This document shows positions 1 to 16,147 of a DNA stretch of 39,705 nt, in pieces. A program made the position numbers and the translations under genes. Positions within the stretch are counted from its first letter, which is position 1. Each line of letters opens with the position of its first letter. Under the pieces are notes generated by a model. It did not search any database, was not told the DNA's origin, and saw only the letters and a program-made list of their open reading frames with translations. The DNA is from a virus (Duplodnaviria > Caudoviricetes). Where the stretch lies: the IMG/VR virus record IMGVR_UViG_3300020148_000034, positions 1 through 39,705 of that record; one strand, written 5' to 3'.

Positions 1-306
1 CTATTCGGTCGGGGTTTCTTTTTGGAGGGCAGCGTTGATGGCAATCGTCCAAGCGTCACCCCAGTCGATATGCTCACCGGCAGCAGCAATGTATCCGCTG
101 TCATCTTCCGCCGATTCTACAGCCCTAACCATTTCATCAGTCGGCTCCCGCATCGCCTCGATGGCCCGCAAAGCCATAAATGGATAATGGTACTGCCATT
201 CCATCATCGATATTTCACCGACACAGGCGCTGATCTTGCGGGGCGCATCCGGGTCTTTCCCATCAGCCCTGCACAGCGCCCGCGCCACTCTCTCCACCAT
301 CGTCAC
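1..306 (-). CDS. Hypothetical phage protein (~100 aa)
   Basis: C-terminal part of ORF 1..576. GTG at 306 overlaps the primase TGA (GTGA coupling); alternative ATG at 300. Reads MVERVARALC...AIEAMREPTDEM, a common small phage protein type. Confidence 0.7.
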   Translation of the reverse strand: MTMVERVARALCRADGKDPDAPRKISACVGEISMMEWQYHYPFMALRAIEAMREPTDEMVRAVESAEDDSGYIAAAGEHIDWGDAWTIAINAALQKETPTE

Positions 307-2987
307 CACGGAATATCCTCCTGCTCGATTTTGTCCATCTGAATGCCGCCCTCGGACAACACAATCCCCGTAGCGAGCATCCCGCTCGATCTCTTTTTCA
401 GCACTACGCCCGGCATGACCTTGAGCCGCTGCGAAAACGTGTTCACCGGCGGCAGGAATTTCTCCGCATGGCCCTGCTCCACCGCCCAGGCCTTGAAGTG
501 CTTGAACAGGTCCGAAGTTCGCTTCCACCCGCCAATGGGTTCGACGGACGCCGGCGCGATGTTCTCCTCGAACCACTCAACCAGCGGATCGAGCCGCAAC
601 CAGCTCGACAGGGCCTCTTGCGAGGATGCCGGCACAGTATAGGACCGGCGTTCGAATAGCCGCCTGGCGCCCTCAATGGAAAATCGCAGAAGCAGATCGA
701 GTTCGTCGTGCCTGATCCGGTCTGCGATATCCTCGATAATCTCATTCTCGGGGATCGGGCGATTGAACCGCACCACCACTAGGCGCCGTTGCAGCCCCCG
801 ATCCAGACCGCCATGGAACCTCGGCAGCGTGTTGGTGGTAAACACATGGATTGCCCGCGGCACGAACGTCACGGCCGAACGATAGAGGTCGCGCCCTTCG
901 ATGGAGTTGCCGGTCACCGCCGCCTTGAACGTTTCCCCGGCGATGGCGTTGGCCGACAGCTCATCGGCCACGTTCGCGGCCTTGCCGGCCAGGTTCACGA
1001 TCCTGCGCTCATCCTCATAGGCGCTCGGCGGGATATGCGACACCGCTCCCTCGGGCAACAGGCATTCGAGCAGCGAGGCAATCGTGGATTTGCCATTTGA
1101 GGCCGTCTCGCCCAGGAACACGAACGCCTTTGGCTGGGGCAAACGTGTGGCAATACCGAACGCCGACGCGCCGAGGATTTCCCCAATCAGGTCAATTTTT
1201 TCGGCCGCGTCAGGATCGTCCCTGAAAGCGCCCATCACGAGCCGGTGCAGATATGAGCCTTCGGGCAGCACATCATCGCGCCCATTCCCATATCGTGCCG
1301 GGATCGTGAACCGAAACCGATCCTCGGGCGAATGTGACCGCAGCGTCACCGCTCCACCCTTGGCGATCTCGATCACCGTATCCGCGCAATTCAGCGCCAC
1401 GCTGGGGCGGTTGAAGAAATCGGGATGCGAAAGGATCGTGCCAACCTCGGAGAGAATGCCGTTAATCATGGTGCGGCCCACCTTGATCGGGTTTTTCCCC
1501 TGTACGGTCACATTGTCATATTTATGTGCGGCGAGCCGCAGGTGCTTGTCGGGGATCGCGCGCCAGCAGGTGGGGCCCCACGCCCAGAAACGTCCATCCG
1601 CGTGAACGACCGGCCCACAATAGTGCTCAAGGGCAAGGCTCATCACTTGGGCGATGTGAACCTCACTGCCATGTTCGATATCGGCTGGTTTAGGGATCAG
1701 GTCGATGGCGTCGGCGCCCACCGGGTCCACCGGCATATTCAGATCGGGCTCGGGCGGCGGCTCTATCGGATCATCAGGCCAGGAGGGGACGGCGGACACG
1801 CGACAATTAAGCATGAAGCCATCGAGCGCGGCTTTGTTCCACTGGTCGCGCACAGCATCGGCGGCGTCCCACCCCTTAGGGACGGGCGTTCCAGCCCGCC
1901 AGTCGGCATAGGTCAGGCAAGCTCCCTTTGCTGCACCAAAGGCGCGTCCGGGTTCTCGGCCGCGTCCACGATCACGCGCATCTGCCCGTCGACCAGCGCC
2001 ATGGGGGCCACCGCCGGATCCTCGTTCACGAACCAGAGGTGCCCCCCGCCCTCCCGTATGAACCATTGCCCCTTTGCTACCGGCAACGCCCCCACCGTCC
2101 GAAACTGCATTTCCTTCATGGCACTCCCTCAATACATCGATGAATTTCAACTCACTGGCGATGCCGGAAAGAATTTCCGCCAGCTCCGCCATGTATTTGA
2201 AGCCTTCCGGGTCCGCGTCGGGCCAGATCAGAACCTTCTTGCCCTTGAGAGCCGACCAATCGGCATACCTTCCGCCATAGACGCCGCCCGCCGCCGAAAC
2301 GGCAATGCGCCCCGTCGCCGCGAATATCGCGTCAACCTTCTTTTCCCCTTCCACCACAATGACCTGTGTGGTTTCTGGCCTGATACGTTCCGCCCCATAA
2401 AGCGGGCGAGGTTTGGGGAACGGGAACCTGGACCAGCACTCCCGCCCATCTGGTAGCCGCACCCAGCAGACCTGCGGCGTCTCCTTCCCGCCATCCGGCA
2501 GGTCATGCCGCAGCACATAGCCGATCAGCGAGCCATCAGCGTGCCGGTATGGGAAAACAGCCGAAGGCTTGATGTTCCCGTTACGTTCACGCTTGGGATT
2601 GTGTAAGACAACATTCCTATTTGGTGCAAGCGTATTGTTGGGAACGAGTAGGGTTATCCCCTTATACGGATCGCGCGCCTCAATTTTCTTCGGCTGGACA
2701 TTCGCCCCGGCAGCGCGATCTCCATTCAAAATCTGGATTGCTTCATGCGTCTCGACGCCCTTGATCTCCTTCACGAAATCGATCACGTCGCCCTTCGCGC
2801 CGCAGCCGAAACAATGATACCGCCAGACGCCATCACGGCCGGGAAAGACGGTAAAGGATGGCGTCCTCTCCTCGTGGAACGGGCAGCAGGTTTCGAACTC
2901 CTGACCGTTGCGGTCCAGCGTCACACCCATCGACAGGGCAATATCCGGTAGCGATACCTCGCTTCTGATCTTGTCGATATCGCTCAC
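303..2987 (-). CDS. DNA primase/helicase: CHC2 zinc finger + Toprim + P4/D5-type SF3 helicase
   Basis: CCPFHEERTPSF...YHCFGCGAKGD zinc finger; VVEGEK, WPDAD and KGWDAAD Toprim motifs; GETASNGKST Walker A; NVADE Walker B; FTTNTLP. Start probably GTG 2987, because the ORF-track start at 3041 runs through an operator. Confidence 0.9.
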   Translation of the reverse strand: MSDIDKIRSEVSLPDIALSMGVTLDRNGQEFETCCPFHEERTPSFTVFPGRDGVWRYHCFGCGAKGDVIDFVKEIKGVETHEAIQILNGDRAAGANVQPKKIEARDPYKGITLLVPNNTLAPNRNVVLHNPKRERNGNIKPSAVFPYRHADGSLIGYVLRHDLPDGGKETPQVCWVRLPDGRECWSRFPFPKPRPLYGAERIRPETTQVIVVEGEKKVDAIFAATGRIAVSAAGGVYGGRYADWSALKGKKVLIWPDADPEGFKYMAELAEILSGIASELKFIDVLRECHEGNAVSDGGGVAGSKGAMVHTGGRGAPLVRERGSGGGPHGAGRRADARDRGRGREPGRAFGAAKGACLTYADWRAGTPVPKGWDAADAVRDQWNKAALDGFMLNCRVSAVPSWPDDPIEPPPEPDLNMPVDPVGADAIDLIPKPADIEHGSEVHIAQVMSLALEHYCGPVVHADGRFWAWGPTCWRAIPDKHLRLAAHKYDNVTVQGKNPIKVGRTMINGILSEVGTILSHPDFFNRPSVALNCADTVIEIAKGGAVTLRSHSPEDRFRFTIPARYGNGRDDVLPEGSYLHRLVMGAFRDDPDAAEKIDLIGEILGASAFGIATRLPQPKAFVFLGETASNGKSTIASLLECLLPEGAVSHIPPSAYEDERRIVNLAGKAANVADELSANAIAGETFKAAVTGNSIEGRDLYRSAVTFVPRAIHVFTTNTLPRFHGGLDRGLQRRLVVVRFNRPIPENEIIEDIADRIRHDELDLLLRFSIEGARRLFERRSYTVPASSQEALSSWLRLDPLVEWFEENIAPASVEPIGGWKRTSDLFKHFKAWAVEQGHAEKFLPPVNTFSQRLKVMPGVVLKKRSSGMLATGIVLSEGGIQMDKIEQEDIPW
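1913..2119 (-). CDS. Nested out-of-frame gene (68 aa) inside the primase gene
   Basis: SD GAGGGAG 4 nt before ATG. 58/68 codons end in G/C versus 27/68 in the primase frame (hand count). The primase frame reads as Gly/Arg-rich shadow sequence here. Confidence 0.65.
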   Translation of the reverse strand: MKEMQFRTVGALPVAKGQWFIREGGGHLWFVNEDPAVAPMALVDGQMRVIVDAAENPDAPLVQQRELA

Positions 2988-3002
2988 GTCAACGTTCCAA
3001 AC

Positions 3003-3021
3003 TGCTAATTTTAAATCAACA
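3003..3021. promoter_or_regulatory. 19-bp palindromic operator, copy 1 (upstream of primase)
   Basis: TGCTAATTTTAAATCAACA; one of 8 related copies. Confidence 0.75.
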
Positions 3022-3109
3022 GTATTTGCCTGAAATTGCAAGGGCAGATGCAGCAGAAGTGCCCATTATCCCGAAAAAGCAGGCTGAGCCGGCAGACGCT
3101 TTCGGCATG

Positions 3110-3535
3110 TCAGCCGCTATTCTCAAATGAGCAGTCGGGGAAAAGCACCGAGGCCAGGTCATCATCGGTTCTGGCGATGCCTGCCCGCCCGCCGAAACGG
3201 TTCACCAGATCGATGAATTGTTGCTGCTCATCGCTCGTCCGTCCGCGCTGGGATTTTGTTTCGACAGCGGCATAGACGGCAAGTTTCCGCCCGACCATCT
3301 CGGCGGTGACGGTGACCGGCGCAAACCCGATCAGGTCGGACATCCCGGCATGGCCGGCCTTGAATGGCCGCCCCTGACGGATCAACACATCACCGGCTTC
3401 GACGCGGACACTCGCCGGGCGCCTGAACTGTTGCGCCTGGCCCACCCACGCCGTGCCGACATTGTTCCGCCAGAGGCGAGCGCCAAGCTCGGTCGCCCGC
3501 TTCATGCAGCGGCGCATGAAATCCGTTTCCTTCAT
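3110..3535 (-). CDS. VRR-NUC domain nuclease
   Basis: LWRNNVG...GMSDLIG...AVETKSQRGRTSDEQQQF...GGRAGIAR, a PD-(D/E)XK VRR-NUC pattern. Confidence 0.85.
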   Translation of the reverse strand: MKETDFMRRCMKRATELGARLWRNNVGTAWVGQAQQFRRPASVRVEAGDVLIRQGRPFKAGHAGMSDLIGFAPVTVTAEMVGRKLAVYAAVETKSQRGRTSDEQQQFIDLVNRFGGRAGIARTDDDLASVLFPDCSFENSG

Positions 3536-3543
3536 GGCTGACC

Positions 3544-3888
3544 TCAGAACGGGATATCATCATCCATGCCGCCCGGCGCCGGTGCCCCGCCGCCACGGTT
3601 CGCGCCCGGCCGTGAGGCCGGAACCGGCTGGCGCTGCCCACCAGACTGACCACCGCCCTGCTGCTGGCCGTCCTGCTCGCGCAGGTCGAAGCACGACAGC
3701 AGCACGGTCTCGCGGTCGGAGTTGACGCCGGCAGGATTGAACGTGCGCTGGAGCAGGATGAAAACCGACCCATCGTCGTTTTTCATCAGCGCTCCGACAT
3801 TCTGATAACGATTCTTGCTCTCGCCCGTGTTGCGGTCGGTATATTCACCAGTCTTGACGGCGATATCCTTAATCTTCCGCGCTGCCAT
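3544..3888 (-). CDS. Single-stranded DNA-binding-like protein
   Basis: Beta-rich N-terminus, Gly/Gln/Pro linker and C-terminal DDDIPF SSB tail. Confidence 0.7.
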   Translation of the reverse strand: MAARKIKDIAVKTGEYTDRNTGESKNRYQNVGALMKNDDGSVFILLQRTFNPAGVNSDRETVLLSCFDLREQDGQQQGGGQSGGQRQPVPASRPGANRGGGAPAPGGMDDDIPF

Positions 3889-4076
3889 TAGAGCGCTCCC
3901 TTAAAAAGTGGATGAAAAAACCCGCCCCACCACAGCAGCGGGACGATGATAAGCACCGAAAGCAGCGCCGCCCATCCATCGGTGGGCTTGCGCGGCTGTC
4001 CGTGCTGGGCAAAGTTCATGCCCAGACTTAGCGCTACGAGTGCAATGTAAATCAGTTGCGGCCATGCCATTCTCAC
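3888..4076 (-). CDS. Small two-TM membrane protein
   Basis: Two hydrophobic segments (WPQLIYIAL..., LLWWGGFF); overlaps both neighbours. Confidence 0.75.
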   Translation of the reverse strand: MRMAWPQLIYIALVALSLGMNFAQHGQPRKPTDGWAALLSVLIIVPLLWWGGFFHPLFKGAL

Positions 4077-4993
4077 TCTCCTAAAACCAACCGGTATCCT
4101 TGCCGGTAGCCCATGTTTTCGACACCGACGCCGGTGCCGGCCAGCTTCACCCTCATCTTGCCGAGGGCGGTTTTCAGAGCGTTGTACATCTTGACGGGCT
4201 CCGGCCCGCCATCGGGATCGTCCTCATACATCGCCGTGAAAATTCGCTCGTTATCGACAGGCATGCCGTTGCCCGCCCAGATCGCGCCGAGAACCTTCTT
4301 CTCCATGGGCTGCAACCCGGCCACGTCAGCCACCACGTCGAGCGTGGGGCGCCAGGTCTCCTGAAAGCAGCACGGGCACCGTATTGGCGCCGGCAGGTTC
4401 ATCGTTGCCGCGAACCGATTGTGCCGCCGCGCGCCGCCCTTGTCGTAGAGTTTGACGGGCGCGGCTTCGCGCAGGTTCTGGATGCGGTTGTTGAGCCGGT
4501 TTCCATCCTTCCAGGTAATGGCCAGATCGGTTTTGCCGTGATGCCAATTCCACACCAGCACATTGAGCCGATAGAAAACCCCATCGATCTCAAGCAACGG
4601 ATATTCGATGCCGGATTGCACCAGTCGCTCCAGCCCCGGCAACGCACGGCGCCCGGTCGAGCGCCAAACCAGATCGCCATTCACCGGCTCGTATTCGAAC
4701 AGCGCCCGCGCCTCATCCTGATCGATCTGGGCGGGCCAGTATTCCGGGCTCAGCCGCACCTCGGCCAGCGACGGGATCGGCGGCAGGCGGCGGCGCTGGC
4801 GATATGACCGTTGATAATCACGCTCGCAGGATCGGCACCACGGCGCCAAACCGTCCTTCCGACCAGTGACAGCACGGAATTCCAAACTGTTTTTTGAAGT
4901 GTTGCATCGCGGGCAACGCTTCGGGAAAACAATGCTACCGATCTGTTTTTCTTGTTGCTGATTTTCAGGCAACGCATCGGGAAAACAATTCAT
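4073..4993 (-). CDS. Zn-finger + degenerate HNH + winged-helix protein
   Basis: ATG 4993 coupled to helicase stop (TGATG). CPRC...WCRSC; VWNWHHG...WKDGNRLNNRIQNLR; CPCC followed by an OmpR/Trans_reg_C-like C-terminus ending GYRQGYRL. Confidence 0.7.
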   Translation of the reverse strand: MNCFPDALPENQQQEKQIGSIVFPKRCPRCNTSKNSLEFRAVTGRKDGLAPWCRSCERDYQRSYRQRRRLPPIPSLAEVRLSPEYWPAQIDQDEARALFEYEPVNGDLVWRSTGRRALPGLERLVQSGIEYPLLEIDGVFYRLNVLVWNWHHGKTDLAITWKDGNRLNNRIQNLREAAPVKLYDKGGARRHNRFAATMNLPAPIRCPCCFQETWRPTLDVVADVAGLQPMEKKVLGAIWAGNGMPVDNERIFTAMYEDDPDGGPEPVKMYNALKTALGKMRVKLAGTGVGVENMGYRQGYRLVLGE

Positions 4994-6390
4994 CACGCCG
5001 CCCTCCCCTTCGCCTGCCGGGCAGTCCAGACGTGCGCGGCCCACTTCTCGGGCGATTTGTACCCGCGCGAGCGCGCCAGGCTGACCAGATCGTCCAGCGT
5101 CTTGGCGCGCGCCTGCTCAACCACGCGCTGGCGGCGTACGGCCTCGATGTCGATCTCCACAAGATCGCCCTCGATCTCGGCCACCTTCCGGGCCTTCACC
5201 TCATAGACGTGCCCGCATTCGGGACACCGCGGCGCCGGATCGTGAGACGCGCCACATTCCGGGCAGGTGCGAACCTTCTCCTCCTGCTCTCCGCCCTTGC
5301 GCTTGCCATTGTTCTCGCCATCGAGCGACCATTCCCGTTCCTCGTCGGGCAGACCGAGGCGCGCAAAGCCGCCGACCAGATCAAGCAGGATCGCCGGCTG
5401 GGGTTTCTTCCGCAGGCCGCGCCCATGGCGCTGGAGGTGCTTGGCCAGCGATTGCGTGGGCGACATGTCCAGTACGCATTCAATCGGCACGTCGCGCCCA
5501 ACCTGGGCCGACATATCGAACCCCTCGCTGAACAGGTTCACGTTCACCAGACCGTCAAGCTGCCGGTCGGCCAGCGCCAGGAACGCCCGGTCCCGGTCTG
5601 CCTGCGGCGTGTTGGCATCGAGCGCGATGAACCGCATGCCGTTCTCGCGGAACTCTGCCGCCATTTCCTCCGCGCGCCGAACCGATGGCGCGAACGCGAT
5701 GGTGCGCAGCCCCGATGCATGCTTGCGCCAGTGCCGTACCGCCCCCGCCATAACGGCCTTGCCCGCAATCAAATCCTCAACCTCGGCGGCGACATACTCG
5801 CCCTTGCGCGTGCGCAGGCCCGACACGTCGATGCCGGCAGGCGAGAAGGCCCGATATTTTGACAGCCTGCCATTCTCGATCAGCCAGCGCGGCGACGGCC
5901 CCATCACCATCGTGTCCCACACAGCCCCGAGCGGCTTACCATCAAGCCGGATCGGGGAACCCGTCAGTCCGATGATCTTGGCACCGGATTTCTTGTAATA
6001 TTCCACCACCCGCGCCCAGCCTTCGGACGCCGACAGGTGCGCCTCATCGATGAACACGTAATCGGCAGGGTGCTTGCCCAACCGGTTTTTCAACGTGTCG
6101 ATGCTGGCGATCTGAATTTTGCGATAGATATTGTGATGGTAGCCGGCGGCAATATAGGAGTAGGCCAGCCCGAACGCTTCGAGCGTGACGGCGGTTTGCT
6201 TGAGCAGCGCTAGCCGGTGGACCGCGAAAATTACGCGCTTACCCGCCGCCTCGATCAGCGCGATCAGGGCGCTGGAGAACACGGTTTTGCCCCACCCGGT
6301 CGGCGCATAGACCAGCACCGAGCCATGGGTGCGCAACGCCACGCGCGTCTCGGTGCGAACCTGATCCTGGTCGGCGGTGAGGGAGATCAT
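4993..6390 (-). CDS. Superfamily 2 DEAH-box helicase with C-terminal Zn ribbon
   Basis: APTGWGKT, FIDEAH, GLTGSPIR, FSEGFD, QRHGRGLR, CPECG x2. Confidence 0.92.
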   Translation of the reverse strand: MISLTADQDQVRTETRVALRTHGSVLVYAPTGWGKTVFSSALIALIEAAGKRVIFAVHRLALLKQTAVTLEAFGLAYSYIAAGYHHNIYRKIQIASIDTLKNRLGKHPADYVFIDEAHLSASEGWARVVEYYKKSGAKIIGLTGSPIRLDGKPLGAVWDTMVMGPSPRWLIENGRLSKYRAFSPAGIDVSGLRTRKGEYVAAEVEDLIAGKAVMAGAVRHWRKHASGLRTIAFAPSVRRAEEMAAEFRENGMRFIALDANTPQADRDRAFLALADRQLDGLVNVNLFSEGFDMSAQVGRDVPIECVLDMSPTQSLAKHLQRHGRGLRKKPQPAILLDLVGGFARLGLPDEEREWSLDGENNGKRKGGEQEEKVRTCPECGASHDPAPRCPECGHVYEVKARKVAEIEGDLVEIDIEAVRRQRVVEQARAKTLDDLVSLARSRGYKSPEKWAAHVWTARQAKGRAA

Positions 6391-7076
6391 GCCGCCACCC
6401 TCTCGTCAGCCGGCCCCGCCCACTGCATAGCGGCGGCTTCAAGCATCAAGGGGAATGACCGCGAGCGGAGCCGCGCCCGCTCGGGGCCCGGCGGCATGCG
6501 ATGCACCTTGTTCCAGCGCCGCCATTCATCAGAGCCGCGTTCGGGCTCCAGGAGCAGGTTCGTCTCGACCAGCTTGGGGAGCTTGCGCAGATACCATCCG
6601 GTGCCCTTGTACTCAGGATGGCCAAACCAGAACGGCTGCACCATCTGCGGCGCCGGCAGGTCGGCTGGCATTCTGGCGCGGGCCAGATCGTTCATTTCGG
6701 GATTTTCGACGGCGACACGCTCGATGGGCGCTTTCCAGCAGGCGGTGAAGATCGACACGCCTTCCTCGAATTCCGCCTTCATATCGTCCCAGGTGCGTCC
6801 GGCAGGCAGCTTTTTGGGCGGCGTCCATATGCCAGGGCCGCTCATCCAGCGCCGGCCAGACCGACAGAGCCGTGTGCATGGCGGGTGGAGGACGGCGAGC
6901 ATGTCCCAGCCTTCATTCAGGATGCCGTCACGCACGTCGCAAACGATATGGCGGTTGCTGCCATCCTCGGCCGGCAGGATATCGCAGGACCAAACGTCAT
7001 GGCCCAGGGCTGCGAACGCCCGCCGGCCGATGCCGCTGGTTTCACAGGCGATCAGGATGCGGAGGGGCTTAGTCAT
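6387..7076 (-). CDS. Phage C5 DNA cytosine methyltransferase-like protein
   Basis: LIACETSG (variant motif I), SCDI, HPPCT (catalytic PC), VENP (motif VI), QPFWFG. Confidence 0.65.
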   Translation of the reverse strand: MTKPLRILIACETSGIGRRAFAALGHDVWSCDILPAEDGSNRHIVCDVRDGILNEGWDMLAVLHPPCTRLCRSGRRWMSGPGIWTPPKKLPAGRTWDDMKAEFEEGVSIFTACWKAPIERVAVENPEMNDLARARMPADLPAPQMVQPFWFGHPEYKGTGWYLRKLPKLVETNLLLEPERGSDEWRRWNKVHRMPPGPERARLRSRSFPLMLEAAAMQWAGPADERVAA

Positions 7077-7387
7077 TTCGACCCCACCACCATGTCCCGA
7101 ATATCCGCTTCGTAAGGCGCCATCTTCCGCAATCGGAAAGCTGCGACGGCCAGGTCGGCCAGCACATCGGCGTCGATCCGCGTATGCACAGTCACTGTCG
7201 CGGAGCCGTCGCTGTTCGGGATGCAGCGGCCAAGGATTTCCTCAATGGCCGCTGCCTGGGTTTCCATCGTCCCGGCCAGCCGCGAGCGTCCGTTGAAGCG
7301 ATCGAACAGCCCCTTGCAAAACCGCAAAGCATCTTCACGCTCGGAAACGGCAAGCTCCGAGTTCAGCAGATCCAGAAACCCGCCCAT
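7073..7387 (-). CDS. Hypothetical protein
   Basis: ATG 7387 just after the Cro-like stop; stop overlaps the next ATG. The upstream part of ORF 7073..7588 is shadow of the Cro-like gene. Confidence 0.65.
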   Translation of the reverse strand: MGGFLDLLNSELAVSEREDALRFCKGLFDRFNGRSRLAGTMETQAAAIEEILGRCIPNSDGSATVTVHTRIDADVLADLAVAAFRLRKMAPYEADIRDMVVGSK

Positions 7388-7389
7388 GG

Positions 7390-7659
7390 TCAGAGGTCCG
7401 GCAACAGGTCGGATGGTTCGAGCGGTCGACCAATGCGGTGGCCAACAGCAATCATTTTTTCCTGCATATTCCCAGAAATCAGACCGCGCTTGTCCTGGAG
7501 GCTGCGCGCTATGTGGGAACGCGTGCAGTTCAGCTCTCTGGCGAGAGCCGATTGGCGAAGCCCCAGCTTGATAAAGCACTTCTGCCACGGCGTTTTCTTC
7601 GCCGGCACCGTATGCCGTGCGGCGTCGGCGCCCCCGCTCGCATCAATTTGCTCATTCAT
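7390..7659 (-). CDS. Cro-like HTH regulator
   Basis: GGAG RBS; LGLRQSALARELNCTRSHIARSL HTH; divergent from the repressor. Confidence 0.75.
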   Translation of the reverse strand: MNEQIDASGGADAARHTVPAKKTPWQKCFIKLGLRQSALARELNCTRSHIARSLQDKRGLISGNMQEKMIAVGHRIGRPLEPSDLLPDL

Positions 7660-7674
7660 GCAAATCGCTCCATT

Positions 7675-7718
7675 TGCTAACTTTAAATTAGCATAATGAA
7701 CAGAACATGCAGCGTCAA
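7675..7718 (-). promoter_or_regulatory. Leftward promoter (TTGACG-17-TATGCT) overlapped by operator copy 2 (7675-7693)
   Basis: -35 at 7713-7718 and -10 at 7690-7695 on the minus strand; operator TGCTAACTTTAAATTAGCA. Confidence 0.75.
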
Positions 7719-7756
7719 CCCTCGTTGCGTTAACTGCGCGGATCACAACGGCCGGC

Positions 7757-7780
7757 TATGATGTTGATTTTTAATTAGCA
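7757..7780 (+). promoter_or_regulatory. Probable repressor-gene -10 box with operator copy 3 (7762-7780)
   Basis: TATGAT at 7757-7762, then TGTTGATTTTTAATTAGCA. Confidence 0.65.
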
Positions 7781-7818
7781 ACGTGGATATGTTCGCCCCC
7801 GACTAGGGGAGTGTTCGC

Positions 7819-8451
7819 ATGGAAAACGATGCGCCGCGTTGGGAAATTGATGGCGATTGGTTCCGCCAAAAACTGGCCGAAGTAAAAAAGTCGCAGAATG
7901 CCCTCGGCCGCCACCTGGGCCTGCACTCGGCCGCCATGACCCTTATGTTCAAGGGCAGGCGCCAGATGAAATTGGAAGAAGCCGAAAAAATTGCGCGCTT
8001 CATCAACGCCTCGACGGATGAGGTGCTGTCTCACGCCGGGGTCAAGCTCGGCGGCGACATCGGGGATATCCCGCTTCAAACCCTGATCGAAGAAGATGGC
8101 CGGCTCGTGCCAGCGCCCGCGCCCATGGCTATCCCGACCGAGACGATGAACCGGCTCAAGGCCAATATCCCGCTCGACCGACGCGGAAATTTCGAGGTAG
8201 CCCAGGTGCGGGCCAAGAAGGGCGGGCTCTGGCCATTGGATGACAACCTCGTCCTCTACGAAACACCCACCACCATGGCGCCAGGGCCGGCCTCGGTCCT
8301 ATCCGTATCCAAGCTGCGCGACGGCGCAACCGTGATCGGCAAGGTGATGGACTGGCGAAAGACCGGCGAGGCAAAAATCATCACGCCGGACGGCAAGGAA
8401 AAGGACGCCAATATCGTAGCATCAAGCCCGGTATTGCTGATCGTTCCGTAA
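7819..8451 (+). CDS. CI-like XRE-family phage repressor
   Basis: SQNALGRHLGLHSAAMTLMFKGRRQMKLEEAEKIA HTH; degenerate S24-like C-terminal domain; GGGGAG RBS. Confidence 0.85.
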   Translation: MENDAPRWEIDGDWFRQKLAEVKKSQNALGRHLGLHSAAMTLMFKGRRQMKLEEAEKIARFINASTDEVLSHAGVKLGGDIGDIPLQTLIEEDGRLVPAPAPMAIPTETMNRLKANIPLDRRGNFEVAQVRAKKGGLWPLDDNLVLYETPTTMAPGPASVLSVSKLRDGATVIGKVMDWRKTGEAKIITPDGKEKDANIVASSPVLLIVP

Positions 8452-8455
8452 AAAT

Positions 8456-8479
8456 TCGGGCTCCACAGTGGGAGCCCGA
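8456..8479 (-). terminator. Intrinsic terminator between convergent genes
   Basis: TCGGGCTCC-acagtg-GGAGCCCGA, followed by ATTTTT on the minus strand. Confidence 0.7.
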
Positions 8480-8497
8480 TCCGTTCTTCCAAATCTT

Positions 8498-8767
8498 TTA
8501 GGCCGTCGCTCGCCCCGGATCGAAATAGCCGGAGCGATATTCATCGTGAGCCAGCGCTCGCTTGACGAACGAGACGAACCGACTTCGCATATCCGCGAGA
8601 ACGACGACCGGCGCCGTGAGGCGGTTGAGAGCGAGGAAGGTTTTCGCATCGAGGATCAGAGGCAGGTCACGGATCGCCAGGACGATCGTGCTGCCGACAT
8701 AAGACAGCGCGCCCAGGCAGATCGAGATGCAGGCAAAAATCAGACTTCGGAACCGATAGAGTTTCAT
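8498..8767 (-). CDS. Small membrane/secreted protein downstream of the tRNA
   Basis: ATG 8767 with GAAAGG RBS; hydrophobic N-terminus MKLYRFRSLIFACISICLGALSYV. Confidence 0.6.
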   Translation of the reverse strand: MKLYRFRSLIFACISICLGALSYVGSTIVLAIRDLPLILDAKTFLALNRLTAPVVVLADMRSRFVSFVKRALAHDEYRSGYFDPGRATA

Positions 8768-8789
8768 CGACTGGCCTTTCGAGGTTGAT

Positions 8790-8862
8790 TGGTTGCGGGC
8801 GCCGAGTTGAACGGCCTGTTCCGGGATATGAGCCCAGCCAGCGCACCCGCGCTTTACCCGCC
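8790..8862 (-). tRNA. Atypical initiator-like tRNA-Met (CAU)
   Basis: Minus strand folds as GGCGGGT-AA-AGCGC GGGT GCGCT-GG-CTGGG CTCATAT CCCGG-AACAG-GCCG TTCAACT CGGC-GCCCGCA-A-CCA. It has a 1:72 mismatch, three consecutive G-C pairs in the anticodon stem and an encoded CCA. Confidence 0.8.
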
Positions 8863-8867
8863 GACGC

Positions 8868-8957
8868 ATTAACCCACACCGCTAATTTCATGTCAACACC
8901 GTTAGCGGATATTGACAGCACCACTCTTCCGCCCGTACTGTTGATTTTAAATTAGCA
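8868..8957. promoter_or_regulatory. Back-to-back promoters with operator copies 4 (8880-8898) and 5 (8939-8957)
   Basis: Minus: TTGACA-17-GTTAAT just before the tRNA. Plus: TTGACA 8912-8917 with TACTGT 18 nt later. Operators CGCTAATTTCATGTCAACA and TGTTGATTTTAAATTAGCA. Confidence 0.7.
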
Positions 8958-8970
8958 GAAGGAGCGAACT

Positions 8971-9870
8971 ATGAACCAGATTTCCACTATCGAGGCAGGG
9001 CCGGCAGACCAGGCTTTCATTGCCGAGCACTTCGATATCCCTGGCGATCTTGCCCCCGGCATCTATCCCGGTATTTCGAACGACGCCTATCACGCCGGGC
9101 CGGGCATTTCCAAATCCGGGCTCTGGACGATCTACACGCAGACGCCGGCACATTACCGGTTTGCTGACCGGGAGGAGAAAGCCGAATTCGATTTCGGCAC
9201 CGCCGTCCACTCGGCCATCCTGGAGCCCGAGACGTTCGAGGATCGCGTGTTCAAAGGCCCTGATGACCGGCGTGGCAACAAGTGGAAGGATGCGCAGGCC
9301 GAGGCCACCAATCTCGGCAAGCTCCTGCTGACCGGCCCGGATTACGAGGCGGTGCAGATCGTGCGCGATGCCGTCCACGCCGACGCCTGGCTGTGCGGCA
9401 TCATCACCGGCGGCAAGCCCATGATCGAGCATTCGGCCTACGCCATCGACCCGGCCACTGGCCTCCTGGTGAAGTGCCGCCCCGATCTTTGCCGGCAGGA
9501 TTTGGGCGTCATCCTCGACGTGAAAACCGCCGCCAGCGCCCACCCAGACGCCTTCGCCCGCGCTGTGGTGAACTATGGCTATCATGCCCAGGAAGCCCAC
9601 TACACCGACACATGGCGGCTGGCTGGCGGCGAGGTCGAGGCCTTCGCGTTCCTCGTGGTCGAGAAGAAAAAGCCGTTCGCCTTCGCTGTCTATGAGTTGC
9701 CGCCGTCCATCGTGGACGAGGGCCGGGCGATTATCTCGAAGGCCATGGCCACCTATGCCGAATGCACCAAGGCCGACCGGTGGCCGGGCTATGCCGAGGG
9801 CGTGCAGGAACTGAGTTTCCAGCGCTGGAGCTACCGCGAGACGGCGGCGCCTGAGTTTGAGGAGGCTTGA
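8971..9870 (+). CDS. recE: RecE/exonuclease VIII-like PD-(D/E)XK exonuclease (DUF3799 type)
   Basis: YHAGPGISKSGL, FGTAVH, KCRPD...LDVKT, YGYHAQEAHY, FLVVEK; lies upstream of recT. Confidence 0.88.
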   Translation: MNQISTIEAGPADQAFIAEHFDIPGDLAPGIYPGISNDAYHAGPGISKSGLWTIYTQTPAHYRFADREEKAEFDFGTAVHSAILEPETFEDRVFKGPDDRRGNKWKDAQAEATNLGKLLLTGPDYEAVQIVRDAVHADAWLCGIITGGKPMIEHSAYAIDPATGLLVKCRPDLCRQDLGVILDVKTAASAHPDAFARAVVNYGYHAQEAHYTDTWRLAGGEVEAFAFLVVEKKKPFAFAVYELPPSIVDEGRAIISKAMATYAECTKADRWPGYAEGVQELSFQRWSYRETAAPEFEEA

Positions 9871-9873
9871 GGG

Positions 9874-10086
9874 ATGGCCTGTACCTGCGCTGACGATATC
9901 GACGTCAAACTGGCCGAGCGAAACACTCGGCTGGAACGAGCAATCATGTTCGGCCCGCACCCGTCCACTGGGCCGCACCTCATGTTGCGGACTGAGCAGA
10001 TCGAGAAGGGGCGCGGAAAGCCGAAGGCGGCGGCGATGTTCATCAATTTCTGCCCGTTCTGCGGCGTGAAATATGCCACCGACTGA
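9874..10086 (+). CDS. Small Cys-rich (zinc-binding) hypothetical protein
   Basis: CTC...FCPFCG; starts 4 nt after the recE stop. Confidence 0.7.
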   Translation: MACTCADDIDVKLAERNTRLERAIMFGPHPSTGPHLMLRTEQIEKGRGKPKAAAMFINFCPFCGVKYATD

Positions 10087-10241
10087 CCCCGGCTCCCTCT
10101 CCCGCATCTTCTGGTCGGCCGCACGACTTCACCGCTGTGGCCGGCCATCACCACACATCAAGCCGGCGCTCTGGCATGTCGCCAAACATGCCCGTGGGGC
10201 GCTCCGTCAAAACGCCATTCGGATTTTAAAGGAGATCATCA

Positions 10242-11186
10242 ATGGCTAGCACCGCTGTCGCAACCCGCAGGCAGAACACCGAGACCTCCGACCTGCAAAC
10301 GAAATCCATCCGGCAGCAGATCGATGACCTGCGCCCCGAATTTGCCAAAACCCTGCCGGCGAACATCCAACCCGACGCATTCGTGCGCAACATCCAGACT
10401 GCGATCCAGCTTCAACCGGAGTTGCTGGAATGTACGCCGCGCTCACTGTTCGCAGCATGCATGAAGGCTGCGAATGATGGGCTAATCCTGGATGGCCGCG
10501 AGGCGGCGCTGATCGTGCGCAATGTAAAGGTCAGCAAGAACCCCGACCGCTACGAGAAACAAGCCACCTACCAACCGATGGTGCAGGGCCTCATGAAGCT
10601 GGCCCGCAATTCCGGCGAGATCAGCAGCATCACCGCCCAGGTTGTCTATAAGAATGACCGCTTTCTCTATGCGCTAGGCGATGATGAGCGGATCGAACAC
10701 GAACCGGCTCCCATCGACCAGGAGCAGGGCGACCCGATTGCGGTGTATGCCATCGTCAAATTGAAGGATGGCACCGTTGTGCGCGAGGTCATGCGCAAAT
10801 CGTCGGTCCTTGCTATCGGCGCTCAGGGCAAGAACGCCTACCAATACGATCCGGGTAACGGAAAGAACTTCGCAGAATGGTGGCGCAAGACCGCGATCCG
10901 CCGCATCACGAAATATATCCCGCGTTCGTCCGACGCCATCGGCAAATTCGCCAACGCGGCCGAGCAGATCGATCAGGATTATGATTGGGACAGCGAGGTC
11001 GCGCGGCCCGCTCCAAAGCCCGCCACCAAGAAGCGCGGCGGCGCGGCAGCGGCACTCAAAACCGTCGCGCCCGAGGTGATCGACCAGCCCGAGCACGACG
11101 AGGAAACCGGCGAGGTTTACGAACCCGATCTGCCCCCTGCGCCACCTGATGAGGCTTATGAGCAGCAGCCAGGGGATGATATCTGA
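10242..11186 (+). CDS. recT: RecT single-strand annealing recombinase
   Basis: LLECTPRSLFAACMKAANDGL, GLMKLARNSG, VVYKNDRF, WRKTAIRRITKYIP; AAGGAG RBS. Confidence 0.92.
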   Translation: MASTAVATRRQNTETSDLQTKSIRQQIDDLRPEFAKTLPANIQPDAFVRNIQTAIQLQPELLECTPRSLFAACMKAANDGLILDGREAALIVRNVKVSKNPDRYEKQATYQPMVQGLMKLARNSGEISSITAQVVYKNDRFLYALGDDERIEHEPAPIDQEQGDPIAVYAIVKLKDGTVVREVMRKSSVLAIGAQGKNAYQYDPGNGKNFAEWWRKTAIRRITKYIPRSSDAIGKFANAAEQIDQDYDWDSEVARPAPKPATKKRGGAAAALKTVAPEVIDQPEHDEETGEVYEPDLPPAPPDEAYEQQPGDDI

Positions 11187-11380
11187 TGGCGTCCGGGCTG
11201 GTCGATATCTCCGTCCAAATCCACCATCGTACCGAGAGGGCAGTCCTTGTCTCGGGCGATGGCAACAAGGACCGCACGGTCTGGATACCTCTCTCGCAAT
11301 GCGAGGTGGAGGACGGCCCGCGCGGCACAGCCACGATCACCATGCCGGAATGGCTGGCTATCGATAAACGCCTTATCTAG
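11186..11380 (+). CDS. Hypothetical phage protein
   Basis: TERAVLV...WIPLSQCEV...ITMPEWLA; coupled to the recT stop. Confidence 0.75.
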
Positions 11381-11403
11381 CCGCCAGTGACAGGAGAAAA
11401 ATC

Positions 11404-11667
11404 ATGGCCGTCGAAGACAGTGTAGCGCAGGACCAACTCCGGGCCTTCATCGAGCGCATCGAGCGGATGGAGGAAGAAAAGGAGGCGATCACCGCCGACA
11501 TCAAGGAAATCTACGCCGAGGCCAAGGGCAACGGCTTCGATACCAAGATCCTGCGCAAGATCATTTCGCTCCGCAAGCGGGACGCCAATGAGCGCATGGA
11601 GCAGGAGGCCCTGCTCGAACTCTATATGTCGGCGCTCGGCATGGTGGAAGCGCCGCCCGAGGGCTAA
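11404..11667 (+). CDS. gapR: GapR-like DNA-binding protein (DUF2312)
   Basis: [17 protein letters not shown]...[27 protein letters not shown] signature. Confidence 0.92.
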
Positions 11668-11969
11668 CGCCCGCTCAAAATATCTGCCAAGGTGCGCCGC
11701 TTCTTCGGAGGCGGCGCAGTCGTTTCGCGCCCCACGACAAAGTCGCCCTTATTCACCGGGTGCTCTTTCCCGATCACGTCCCGATCCCTGCCGTCTCGAT
11801 CCCGCCAGCCCTGCCGGTACGCGCCCAGCGTCAACACCGCCAGCAGCCCGCCAGCGACACCCTGCCAGCCGAACACACGCCAGGCCCAGCCCAGCGCCAC
11901 CCCTGCGACCACAACCCACACCCAGGTCGGCACCCAGCCCAGAACCATGTTTACAAGCCAGTCGATCAT
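11664..11969 (-). CDS. Membrane protein of the lysis cassette
   Basis: Two TM segments and a basic tail; GGAGAG RBS; follows the hydrolase gene. Confidence 0.7.
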
Positions 11970-11978
11970 GCTGCTCTC

Positions 11979-13442
11979 CTAGATATTTCCCAACCGCTCA
12001 TTGAGGCGCCGCGCCTGATCCGGGTTTGACGAATTCGCAATAGCGCGCTCCACGGACGCTCGGTTCGCGGCGTCATATGCCTCGGAGGGCGAATAGCCCT
12101 GATCCCTGTATGCCTGCACCGCAGAGGTGTTTCGTATGGAGCTGGCCTTGGGCGCAGGGACAGGCATCGGCTGCGCGGCCCTGCCCTGCTGCTGCACCGA
12201 GATTGTCCGCTGGGTCCGCGCCAGTTCGGCGCGTTGCGCCGCCAGCCGTTCCTCCAAGGCCTTCACCGAAGCCTCATAGCGGGCGCGCCCGTCGCGCGAG
12301 AGAGGCATCCCCGAGGGTGTCATGCCGCGAAGCTCAATCTCGCCCTGGCGAACCCGCTCCATCAGCCGCGCATATGCCGGGTTCTCCACCTCAACGGTAG
12401 TCGCCAGCGGTGAGGTCGCGGCCGCGATGGCCTGCTGCGCTGGGTTAAAGTCCAGTCCACCGGATGGCATCAATCGATCCTGCGCCTTGGGCGGCTCGTT
12501 CGGGCCGGGCACATCGGAAAGGAAACTGAGCGTTTCCACCGGCCGCGCCGGGCTCGCAGGTCTCGAAGCGACGGAAGGCACTGACGCAACCGTTACGCCG
12601 GGAGCCCGCGCAATCTCGGCGGCGGTGACGGGCCGGGCGCCATCCTGCCCGGCATAACTCTGGGACACACCCACCGGCATCAGCGTGGGGCTCCGAGCGG
12701 CAACAACAGCCGCACGGCTTTGAGCGCCCCCATCTTGCCCGGCATAGGAAATCGCACCGCTGGACAATTGCGGCCGCTGCGCCGCCGCCACGCGCTGCTG
12801 GAGCGCCGCTGCAAGCGCAGGCTCCTGCATGGCCTGCGTGCGCTCGATCGTTTCGGAGATGCCTCGCCCGGAAATCAAATCCGATGTCGTGATGGGGCCG
12901 CGCTGCGCTACCTGCGGGAAAATTCCTGCATAGAGCGATGCCGGATCAGTCGAAACAGGCTGGAGATTGCGCTTCGCCACCGTCATGGCCGAAGGGGTTG
13001 CCGGCGTTGGCGCCGTCTTGGGCGGGGTAACATCGAGCCGGGTGGCGACCGAATTGCCTTGGGCACTATCGGGCACCTGGCCGGAAGCATAGAACCGATG
13101 TCCGCCAATGGTGGCCACATGCTCCATGCTCCGCGCCCAGGACGGCATGGCGTCGCCGGAGAGGAAGTGGTCCGCACCGGGCACTGGATTGGGGATCGTG
13201 CCAGCCTCGACGCCCTGCAAGATACGGTTGGCCTGGGCGCGCAGGGTCTGGCTTTGCTGCGCCTTTACTGCACCGCTACCCGGATTGGTGTGACCGTCGA
13301 AGCCGGACTTGATGACCTGGTCCAGCGTCTGTCCTCGCGCGGCGGCGCGCTGCTTCATCGCCCAGGCGGCGGCGATCATGCCCGCCTCGCCCTCCCCGCC
13401 GGCTTCGGCAATCAGGGTGTTGATGACGGCATCGCTGGCCAT
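11979..13442 (-). CDS. SleB/Hydrolase_2-like cell wall hydrolase (putative endolysin) with long C-terminal extension
   Basis: TLIAEAGGEGEAGMIAA...GADHF...PSWA...IGGHRFY in the first ~120 aa. Confidence 0.75.
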   Translation of the reverse strand: MASDAVINTLIAEAGGEGEAGMIAAAWAMKQRAAARGQTLDQVIKSGFDGHTNPGSGAVKAQQSQTLRAQANRILQGVEAGTIPNPVPGADHFLSGDAMPSWARSMEHVATIGGHRFYASGQVPDSAQGNSVATRLDVTPPKTAPTPATPSAMTVAKRNLQPVSTDPASLYAGIFPQVAQRGPITTSDLISGRGISETIERTQAMQEPALAAALQQRVAAAQRPQLSSGAISYAGQDGGAQSRAAVVAARSPTLMPVGVSQSYAGQDGARPVTAAEIARAPGVTVASVPSVASRPASPARPVETLSFLSDVPGPNEPPKAQDRLMPSGGLDFNPAQQAIAAATSPLATTVEVENPAYARLMERVRQGEIELRGMTPSGMPLSRDGRARYEASVKALEERLAAQRAELARTQRTISVQQQGRAAQPMPVPAPKASSIRNTSAVQAYRDQGYSPSEAYDAANRASVERAIANSSNPDQARRLNERLGNI

Positions 13443-13631
13443 TTATTTCGCCCAGCCGAATTTCCGGGCAAGGGCATAAGCGCACTCGACGCCGGCCGCA
13501 ATGGCCAGACCGATCATCGCCGCGATTTCGGGGTCATTGGCAATCAGATCGGCAAGCTCAGGCGGCAGCACGCCCCTGAAAACCAGGTAGCCGGCCACAT
13601 AGCGCAGTGCGATACGGATAAAGGGTGCCAT
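13443..13631 (-). CDS. Putative holin-like membrane protein
   Basis: GGAGG RBS, ATG 13631; IRIALRY...YALARKFGW; directly upstream of the hydrolase. Confidence 0.65.
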   Translation of the reverse strand: MAPFIRIALRYVAGYLVFRGVLPPELADLIANDPEIAAMIGLAIAAGVECAYALARKFGWAK

Positions 13632-13693
13632 TCCTGCCTCCTTGATTGGAGGCACTATCCCGCCCGATGGTTGGCCCCATCATGGGCCGCGAT

Positions 13694-13948
13694 TTATGGG
13701 GCCAGCCCGCCGCCCAGCACCCATTGCGTCAGCGCCACCAGAACCACAGCGCCCACCACCGTCACGGCCCACCACATGCGTTTCGACCAGCTATTCACCA
13801 CCGACACCAGGCCGTCGATCTTGTCGTAAATGCGCTTCTCGCGCTCCTCGCCCACGGCAACGCGGAGGCTCAGATCGTCCACGCGGGTCTTGAGTGTGTG
13901 CATATCCGCCGCGAGGCGTTCAACCTGGTCCATTATAATGCCTGCCAT
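13694..13948 (-). CDS. Coiled-coil + C-terminal TM protein (XhlA-like, lysis region)
   Basis: Heptad-rich N-terminus and WWAVTVVGAVVLVALTQWVLGGGL. Confidence 0.65.
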   Translation of the reverse strand: MAGIIMDQVERLAADMHTLKTRVDDLSLRVAVGEEREKRIYDKIDGLVSVVNSWSKRMWWAVTVVGAVVLVALTQWVLGGGLAP

Positions 13949-14385
13949 TCTGCCGAGATGTCGAAAGCCTGAACCGCCTCGATGGTGTCGAGGCTGGCAA
14001 TCTGCTCATGCAGCACCGCCTTGCGGTTGAAGGTGGCTTGCACATGATCCCGCACGGCCTCGCCCATAGCGATGATGGTGGCGTTGTCGAGGGGCATGAA
14101 AACGCCAGGCACCACCTCCCAGGTGGGGATTTCATATTCTGGATCGAGCCGGGCCATGGCATAGACCGCCGTGATCTTTGCCTGGCTGTTGGCGTCGGTT
14201 CTGATGGTCGAACCGCGAAAGGCAGCACCGCCGATTTCCATCTGCCACCGGTAGTCATCCAGCTCGGCCAGCTTGCCGGCAATGGCCGTTTCAAGAGTGG
14301 GCGCGGCGGCCGCCTGCTCGGCCTCCCAGGCGGCGATTTCCTGCGGCGTCATTTCGACCTCAACGCCATTCACGATCTTCATCAT
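13933..14385 (-). CDS. Tail fibre assembly-like protein (DUF4376 type)
   Basis: VNGVEVEMTPQE...RWQMEIGG...IRTDANSQAKIT...HVQATF; directly follows the tail fibre. Confidence 0.75.
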   Translation of the reverse strand: MMKIVNGVEVEMTPQEIAAWEAEQAAAAPTLETAIAGKLAELDDYRWQMEIGGAAFRGSTIRTDANSQAKITAVYAMARLDPEYEIPTWEVVPGVFMPLDNATIIAMGEAVRDHVQATFNRKAVLHEQIASLDTIEAVQAFDISAEWQAL

Positions 14386-15740: not shown

Positions 15741-15805
15741 GGCGCGCCTCGATATTGACGAGGGAAGGCTCGCGCGCGATGGTTGGGGCGGAAACGGAGG
15801 CTCCG

Positions 15806-16144
15806 ATGGGCTGGGGGATCAGAATAGCAACGCTGGCAATCGCTGGCATGGCATTGGCGGGATGCACAGCAACCGCCAAGATACAGGGGCAATTTTCGGA
15901 CGGAACCGAAATTTTCACCGGTAGCGCGCAAGGGAAACTCGACGGCTCCGGCACCCTCCAGGTCACCTCCAACAGAGGTCGGAGCTGCGTGGGCAACTTC
16001 GTCTATGAGACGAACCGTCGAGGCGCCGGAACATTCGTTTGCAGCGATGGCAATAGCGGCCCGTTCGAATTCACCAGCACCGGCATGACGGGCGTGGGCT
16101 CGGGCACCATTGGGAACAAAACGTTCGTGTTCACCTTCGGTTGA
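15806..16144 (+). CDS. Small lipoprotein (moron, antisense to the late operon)
   Basis: GGAGG RBS; lipobox LAGC; Gly-rich beta-strand mature domain with two further Cys. Confidence 0.8.
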   Translation: MGWGIRIATLAIAGMALAGCTATAKIQGQFSDGTEIFTGSAQGKLDGSGTLQVTSNRGRSCVGNFVYETNRRGAGTFVCSDGNSGPFEFTSTGMTGVGSGTIGNKTFVFTFG

Positions 16145-16147
16145 GGT

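Follow-up and report, generated by a model that had tools for sequence, protein, structure and literature searches.

A split phage primase gene that was probably re-fused by reading through its intact passenger gene

Several phage enzymes are encoded by genes in pieces: nrdA of Aeh1 is split by mobE, the T4 topoisomerase genes 39 and 60 by mobA, and a split gene 43 has also been described (PMC2988022; PMC3045599). Such a split can be undone, as in Topo2L of Aeromonas phage clade 7, which was re-fused into one open reading frame (ORF) that keeps insert-derived tails (bioRxiv 10.1101/2022.08.31.505936). Genes nested within other genes arise by overprinting, for example phiX174 E within D (PMC8227390), and E. 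coli genes have been remodeled with short, disordered segments taken from the alternative frame of another gene (PMC8788219). Split phage enzymes with inserts, re-fusion after insert loss, overprinted nesting and out-of-frame remodeling are already known, as far as the accessible portions of these reports describe them. Here we analyze the primase-helicase gene of the phage in IMG/VR record IMGVR_UViG_3300020148_000034, together with a complete 68-codon gene that lies out of frame inside it; the window is this whole 39.7-kb phage sequence (39,705 nt), and positions count from its first letter. We propose that the primase was once split, and that it was probably re-fused by read-through of its passenger, the 68-codon gene, which has remained intact and under selection.

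As the initial annotation had noticed, the small ORF lies complete, in the +1 frame, within the open primase frame (Table 1). Our recount of codons ending in G or C agrees with the one given there, 58 of 68 in the small frame and 27 of 68 in the primase frame; expressed as third-position GC content (GC3), the small frame stands at 0.85, the primase frame over the same stretch at 0.40 and other genes of the phage at 0.75-0.81. The Shine-Dalgarno (SD) sequence GAGGGAG is found upstream of the ORF, where it had been reported, and the matching sites in eight split loci that carry the small gene form anti-SD duplexes of -5.0 to -8.4 kcal/mol; the primase residue encoded at this site is Arg in all six nested primases. 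The search for homologues that had been suggested returned proteins of 39-63% identity. The resulting alignment (A6, 18 rows, some of which represent the same protein from two sources) draws on three proteins from the first search, seven short full-length proteins among 11 profile-search matches, and eight further DNA loci; four weak, long profile-search matches are repeat proteins and were excluded. Because of these homologues, and because five other primases carry the same insert, the small ORF is more than a chance opening. Across 21 pairs of seven aligned genes, the proportion of synonymous differences (pS) is 0.28-0.82 and that of nonsynonymous differences (pN) 0.02-0.38, with mismatches concentrated at third positions, and by this comparison the ORF is under purifying selection. 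The proposal that a real, selected gene is nested within an essential replication gene is thus supported, and the option that the block is tolerated as a dual-coding loop fits all the data.

An assembly chimera was rejected because other assemblies have identical bases here and run across the insert: locus L006 is 100% identical over 6119 nt, and contigs of sequencing runs X1 (possibly the source sample), X2 and X4 span the insert with no other letters and no gaps (no joint is listed for X2 or X4). The origin of the small gene by overprinting was rejected on its GC3 and on pS and pN in its frame. The arrangement resembles that of phiX174 E and D, insofar as one gene is entirely contained in another of the same strand but read in a shifted frame. 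In overprinting, as described in the accessible account, it is the inner frame that is new, whereas here the older frame is that of the inner gene, and the outer, essential gene uses the new frame as a linker: GC3 in the inner frame is like that of the genome, and this frame is more widely spread, being found without any outer reading in eight loci, whereas the low-GC3 outer frame across the overlap is confined to one clade.

The initial annotation also raised the possibility that the block is skipped, by splicing or by ribosomal bypass of the T4 gene 60 type, whose features include matched codons, a short gap and a mini-SD (as far as 10.1101/2022.08.31.505936 was accessible). The two TGC codons that it named, at 2123-2121 and 1919-1917, do belong to the primase frame and lie at a distance of 204 nt, and an AGG stands 5 nt before TGC 1919, inside the 5-7 nt range of a mini-SD, although so common a triplet does not discriminate. 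However, the Cys/Cys pair is kept in none of five homologues (P0006-P0010: Y/S, Y/R, Y/S, Y/R, F/R), the take-off codon is followed by a His codon rather than by a stop or rare codon, and there are no stops across the block. The gap, 204 nt at ~66% GC, differs from the known gaps of 20-50 nt with an AU-rich part; the 241-nt region has a folding z of -0.02, and the best structure obtained by folding it as a whole shows no local hairpin where take-off would occur. Relatives also vary in the frame that one primase half has with respect to the other. A group I or II intron or an intein was rejected, since Rfam returned no match at E<=1 over 1700-3200, hence no ribozyme core, and none of the five Pfam matches is an intein (Hint) domain. 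On this evidence, skipping between the TGC codons is scarcely credible. The similar blocks said to flank the insert are indeed both present (2130-2124, and AGGGAG at 1927-1922) but are better explained as two SD-like sites.

The key indication of how this arrangement came about is found in relatives. In all eight other loci with readable DNA (L001, L002, L003, L007, L008, L012, L014 and L020) the small gene is found at the identical position in the same primase gene, which in every case is split into two coupled genes; three of these loci (L001, L002 and L012) are near relatives. (Matches L004, L005 and L009 are spurious, and L018, L019 and L051 are too partial to score.) In six loci (L001, L002, L012, L007, L008 and L020) the N-half enters the small gene by six codons and ends in RDDF; the ATG of the C-half overlaps or just follows the small gene's stop, and the two halves share one frame, -1 to the small gene, with two to four stops between them. 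L003 and L014 differ: their N-half stop forms a perfect overlap with the start of the small gene, and the two halves are read in different frames. The small-gene stop and the C-half start form an ATGA overlap in seven of the eight loci, L008 having a stop, two nucleotides and an ATG.

The same cut also occurs without a passenger (L016, L017, L035 and L046), with a Trans_reg_C gene (L028, which equals L044, and L045) or with a Dam methylase gene (L038), the latter two kinds of passenger having ATGA overlaps on both sides. The Trans_reg_C (winged-helix) passengers, at 2989-3321 of L028/L044 and in L045, are in Mesorhizobium prophages, and the Dam gene is at 2995-3486 of L038. In L032 (2120-2992) the N-half stops at the usual place, and the 1.1 kb between it and the contig end contains an endolysin-like ORF but no C-half. 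A search limited to proteins of 195-623 residues reinforces this picture: among the 120 best matches listed, 114 were measured and 6 were not; in 113 of the 114 the chain terminates 32-43 residues past the DxD motif, GWDxD is absent from all of them, and 14 of those measured finish with an RDDF-type tail. Some of these matches are on short contigs, yet their ends are uniform. Among the 120 best matches of 501-1596 residues (four unscored), the spacing from DxD to GWDxD is short in 55, longer in 55 (53-62 where given) and 116-118 in six, so that 110 of the 120 listed are single chains without the insert; those with the longer spacing typically include a Y-x-F-x-D-W segment. The expectation that homologues would show a clean gap of ~68 residues held only in part. 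The insert is present, but once its 68 codons are subtracted the WPDxD-to-GWDxD spacing is 49, between the single-chain classes of 36-44 and 53-62, hence not a clean gap.

The primase of this phage family is often encoded by two adjacent genes, cut after the last Toprim strand and joined by stop/start overlaps, and the junction carries interchangeable passengers or none. Because split, passenger-bearing and single-chain forms all meet there, this point within the Toprim domain is a labile site of fission and fusion. Judging from the sequences, there is a large family of alphaproteobacterial phage primases in which the Toprim domain is divided over two genes, with the GWDxD Asp on the second chain. 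We take this Asp to be a primase active-site residue, corresponding to motif VI of DnaG and T7, and its invariance in the 82 rows of alignment A5 is the sole support here for that role. In the open-access literature we found no description of such a split-Toprim family; most subscription papers were not covered.

The split relatives resemble genes in pieces, as far as these are described in the accessible literature, in having a two-part replication enzyme, a gene between the parts, start/stop overlaps and short new tails, the last visible by sequence as the RDDF end and the MTY..DW start. They differ in their passengers: a homing endonuclease in the known cases, and here none, a winged-helix gene, a Dam gene or the 68-codon ORF. 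The analyzed phage itself, having one open frame, is not a gene in pieces, whereas all eight other loci with the small gene are split. Single-chain primases with a spacing of 53-62 resemble the re-fused Topo2L. The accessible account of Topo2L has the passenger excised before fusion; here the passenger is intact and selected, and the host gene reads through it.

Four side observations concern this junction. In P0139, known from one contig, an in-frame fusion joins the primase N-half to most of the small protein, which is either a real deletion, and so another possible outcome at the junction, or an assembly error. Several RDDF-type N-halves (L001:1812-1840, L007:341-370, L008, L012 and L020) end on a run of four T that overlaps the stop; the run resembles what we take to be a +1 frameshift site of the prfB kind, and a frameshift there, if real, would give the same fusion of N-half and small protein as P0139. 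Locus L043 (protein P0011) has a single-chain primase inside the RDDF clade, with a spacing of 62 and without the small gene, likely a re-fusion after deletion of the passenger; its metagenome-assembled genome is labeled Actinomycetota, but the phage looks alphaproteobacterial. Gene calling also differs between contigs, one having the small gene plus a 477-residue C-terminal piece and others the full primase.

The analyzed phage carries what appear to be vestiges of the split state (Table 1). Where relatives have the codon pair that creates the N-half stop, it has a synonymous variant, and in place of the ATGA overlap of the C-half it has CTGA, after which comes ACC TAT, as in L007. The remnant of the C-half start is well ordered in the structural model, with a predicted local distance difference test score (pLDDT) of 94 at residues 251-260.

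The CTG at 1916 might still be used, by virtue of its SD and of coupling to the small gene's stop, to make a helicase-only C-half beside the full-length protein. Such initiation, which is compatible with re-fusion, we consider possible but doubtful. The SD before the CTG, at -7.6 kcal/mol and 5 nt spacing, is stronger than in all eight split loci with the small gene, where the matching place gives +0.6 to -3.2 kcal/mol. The K-G encoded at this site and the Leu of the CTG are invariant in all six nested primases, and, of the invariant insert residues, Lys alone calls for an A where the small gene has a wobble position. T7 makes 63- and 56-kDa forms (PMC2910064, as far as accessible); the putative short form here, unlike the shorter co-linear form of T7, would start at a CTG inside the Toprim domain. 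CUG is also able to initiate, at 1-2% of AUG in E. coli (bioRxiv 10.1101/063800). Against this, an ATG would have been abandoned for a weak codon. K-G-x-x-L is, moreover, fairly ordered in the model (pLDDT 73-94), so that protein constraint or simple inheritance can explain its invariance, and the CTG codon is known for the analyzed phage only. A more speculative extension is that one mRNA yields three proteins, the looped primase-helicase, the nested 68-residue protein and a CTG-started helicase, with translation of the passenger tuning the ratio of primase to helicase. If true, this would be the end of a traceable series that runs from a split Toprim active site through a passenger hotspot to re-fusion by read-through.

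The open frame itself must be judged across lineages. Six primases (P0005, that of the analyzed phage, and P0006-P0010), all with the long insert, form a nested clade among split lineages. All five of the other inserts can encode the small protein in the +1 frame (scores 166-221, against maxima of 106-122 in 25 shuffles per insert), and the residues of P0006-P0010 would allow an ATG where the small gene begins and an overlapping TGA where it ends; the +1 frame of P0009 differs from P0130, a separately called small protein, by only nine mismatches. In six of six nested lineages the primase frame is open, whereas all six RDDF-type loci have further stops past the N-half stop (Fisher p=0.002; the lineages are not independent). 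No stop occurs in the primase-frame insert of any of eight nested sequences, although insert identity is 43%, compared with 78% and 66% in the flanks; the 501-1596-residue search can return open frames only. Between P0006 and P0258, 22 of 68 residues differ in the overlap and 23 of ~800 (~3%) elsewhere, yet in the +1 frame as few as six need differ. The overlap read in the primase frame evolves fast and is predicted to be a disordered loop: in the AlphaFold2 model pLDDT is <50 at model residues 191-228 and 230-232 and mostly >90 in the core, and phmmer of the loop region against the PDB gave no matches.

It could be objected that the enzyme is still functionally split, the full-length reading being incidental and the working products being an extended N-half and a CTG-started C-half. 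Codon usage alone leaves the -1 frame open with a probability of 0.11-0.22 per 68-codon locus (0.18 for the analyzed phage), and the strong SD before the CTG also agrees with this view. We nevertheless consider it very unlikely, as the frame is open in all eight nested sequences, and without a stop a ribosome cannot end an N-half. No truncated member of the nested clade was found either: a search for short proteins would rank such members first, yet the best identity in the 195-623-residue listing is 61%, against up to 77% within the clade.

The direction of change was examined in a careful tree of 33 rows, built from N-halves only and rooted on L038. Nested forms are one clade in all three trees inferred, with support of 100/100 in the careful one, where they are sister to the RDDF-type split forms (93/83) and lie inside three further successive split lineages (97/95, 94/85 and 100/99). 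The order from split to re-fused is, on these phylogenetic grounds, well supported but not proven, because the approximately unbiased (AU) test is borderline: it does not clearly reject grouping the 16 split forms apart from the nested clade (p=0.0502). This borderline result lends some weight to the opposite order, in which the small gene entered an intact primase without breaking its frame, as the initial annotation supposed, and split forms arose later through new stops and a new start; the single-chain majority among the listed full-length matches and at least six changes between split and single state on the 33-row tree point the same way. However, the same split occurs across the tree without a passenger or with other passengers, the N-halves of L003 and L014 occupy a different frame and have a perfect stop/start overlap, all nested forms fall together within split lineages, and the analyzed phage keeps apparent vestiges of the split state. 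We consider this opposite order unlikely, and the supposed entry probably reverses what happened, given that relatives show the small gene between halves already split.

We propose the following path of re-fusion. Starting from a split primase with the small gene between its halves, substitutions for the most part at third positions of the small gene, and largely silent in it, would have eliminated stops until the N-half read into the C-half. When the last Ala codon of the small gene changed synonymously, the ATG of the C-half would have turned into CTG, and the C-half start would also have lost two codons. Selection would now keep the primase frame open while hardly constraining its residues, the small protein staying conserved. 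The read-through is predicted to loop out at the surface, after the last Toprim strand and before the GWDxD helix. Ribosomes would start the small gene from an SD and an ATG of its own, and a single mRNA would thereby yield two products, the 68-residue protein and a full-length primase-helicase whose loop is predicted to be floppy.

Several observations weigh against this proposal, in addition to the borderline AU test. The analyzed locus alone proves nothing, since its open frame is plausible by chance; P0006-P0010 are known as proteins only, their +1 frame being deduced from the protein; and the first-position signal among the nested inserts is modest (0.49, compared with 0.40 and 0.32 in the flanks). 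The quick trees do not resolve the base of the larger clade, and the model has no need of the strong SD before the CTG. The single RNA run, X2, covers 1-20000 evenly at a depth of 13-21 and contains the insert unspliced, but it may be DNA and hence offers no evidence on splicing or expression.

The small protein itself is most likely an accessory phage protein co-expressed with the replication genes rather than a primase subunit, because unrelated genes, or nothing, fill the same slot. The initial annotation had it as a possible regulator of replication; in relatives, other genes can take its place. It belongs to no Pfam or PHROG family (six homologues scanned in Pfam likewise gave none), and its AlphaFold2 model (pLDDT 75) has no Foldseek match at E<=0.001 in PDB or BFVD and no usable Atlas match. 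The best VIA-align score, a Z of 3.7 to single beta-propeller blades, is below significance. No match to the protein was found in GenBank phages or GTDB genomes, and no second copy of the block in the 39.7 kb.

Table 1. Features of the primase-helicase locus, listed from the 5' end of the gene (A5, primase alignment)
Feature	Position	Strand	Remarks
Primase-helicase gene	303..2987	-	894 aa from GTG 2987; ORF open from TTG 3041
CHC2 zinc finger	2724..2984	-	PF01807, E 6e-23, residues 20-106
Toprim glutamate motif VEGEK	2340..2354	-	E-G-E-K invariant in A5
Toprim DxD motif WPDAD	2211..2225	-	both Asp invariant in A5
SD-like site of nested gene, GAGGGAG	2124..2130	-	anti-SD duplex -8.0 kcal/mol
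Nested gene	1913..2119	-	68 aa, ATG..TGA, +1 frame to primase; small beta-sheet protein of no known family
Primase-frame reading of nested gene, predicted disordered loop	1986..2111	-	primase residues 311-352
Site of N-half stop in split relatives (RDDF end)	2100..2102	-	sense codon in analyzed phage
Second SD-like site, 5 nt before CTG	1922..1927	-	duplex -7.6 kcal/mol
CTG overlapping small gene's TGA, at position of C-half ATG in split relatives	1914..1916	-	Leu in 6/6 nested primases
Remnant of C-half N-terminal segment, LTYADWRAG	1890..1916	-	split forms MT-Y-x-F-x-D-W-x-x-G, two codons longer
PKGWDAAD motif, conserved Asp	1857..1880	-	in C-half gene of split relatives; Asp272 invariant in A5
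Helicase P-loop region (DUF5906)	816..1115	-	PF19263, E 2e-9, residues 643-742

The 894-residue product comprises, in order, a CHC2 zinc finger, a Toprim primase and a D5/SF3-type helicase (Pfam PF01807, PF01751 and PF19263; PHROG category primases). Its zinc finger, Toprim Glu and DxD motifs and DnaG-like fold place it among DnaG/T7-type Toprim primases; Foldseek with the Toprim model retrieved P. aeruginosa DnaG (E 2e-5) and T7 gp4 (E 2.5e-4), at template modeling scores of ~0.33-0.36 by query. It is like DnaG and T7 gp4, as described in the accessible part of PMC2910064, in joining a zinc finger and Toprim primase fold to a helicase, and unlike them in that the helicase is of the D5/SF3 or VapE type. 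The helicase module (303-1750), which follows a Pro-rich linker, is swapped among relatives between D5-like, another DUF5906 type and VapE (P0005-P0010, L001, L003 and L007), even within the nested clade (P0005 and P0010 versus P0006-P0009). No sigma-70 promoter or terminator was found in 1500-3300.

Elsewhere, the 39.7-kb sequence encodes a terminase, portal, major capsid protein, T7-like tail and internal virion proteins, as well as RecE/RecT, a repressor-like protein, a helicase and VRR-NUC. Its primase relatives are from Rhizobium, Bradyrhizobium and Mesorhizobium, and four of the five sequencing runs containing the stretch are labeled ant metagenome. An HNH endonuclease-like ORF at 4073-5044 (minus strand) is possibly a fusion of two genes; its C-terminal part resembles the winged-helix gene that is a neighbor in L003 and the passenger in L028. 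A 2475-residue protein at 16148-23575 (minus strand; PHROG 9880, unknown function) adjoins the internal virion genes. Contigs of two runs break at 11402-11530 and 15034-15200, and one X2 contig has 12 listed differences in 11436-11514, as in a repeat or variable segment. Contigs of X1 and X2 extend 1759 nt past position 1, and P0001 is recorded on a contig of 670,797 nt, which together suggest a longer genome and a prophage state.

No re-fusion across a passenger that stays intact and under selection was found in the open-access literature, again with most subscription papers not covered, and the accessible report on remodeled E. coli genes describes no case in which the halves of an essential enzyme are joined across a whole, still-selected gene. 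Re-fusion of this kind is probably a new route to overlapping genes besides overprinting, in which an old gene is engulfed as a split essential gene re-fuses over it, the new frame being a mere linker. Gene callers must choose one frame, and nested cases of this kind are therefore easily missed. The likely intermediates are all present in public data, so that the path by which these phages would have rejoined a divided primase can be tested step by step.

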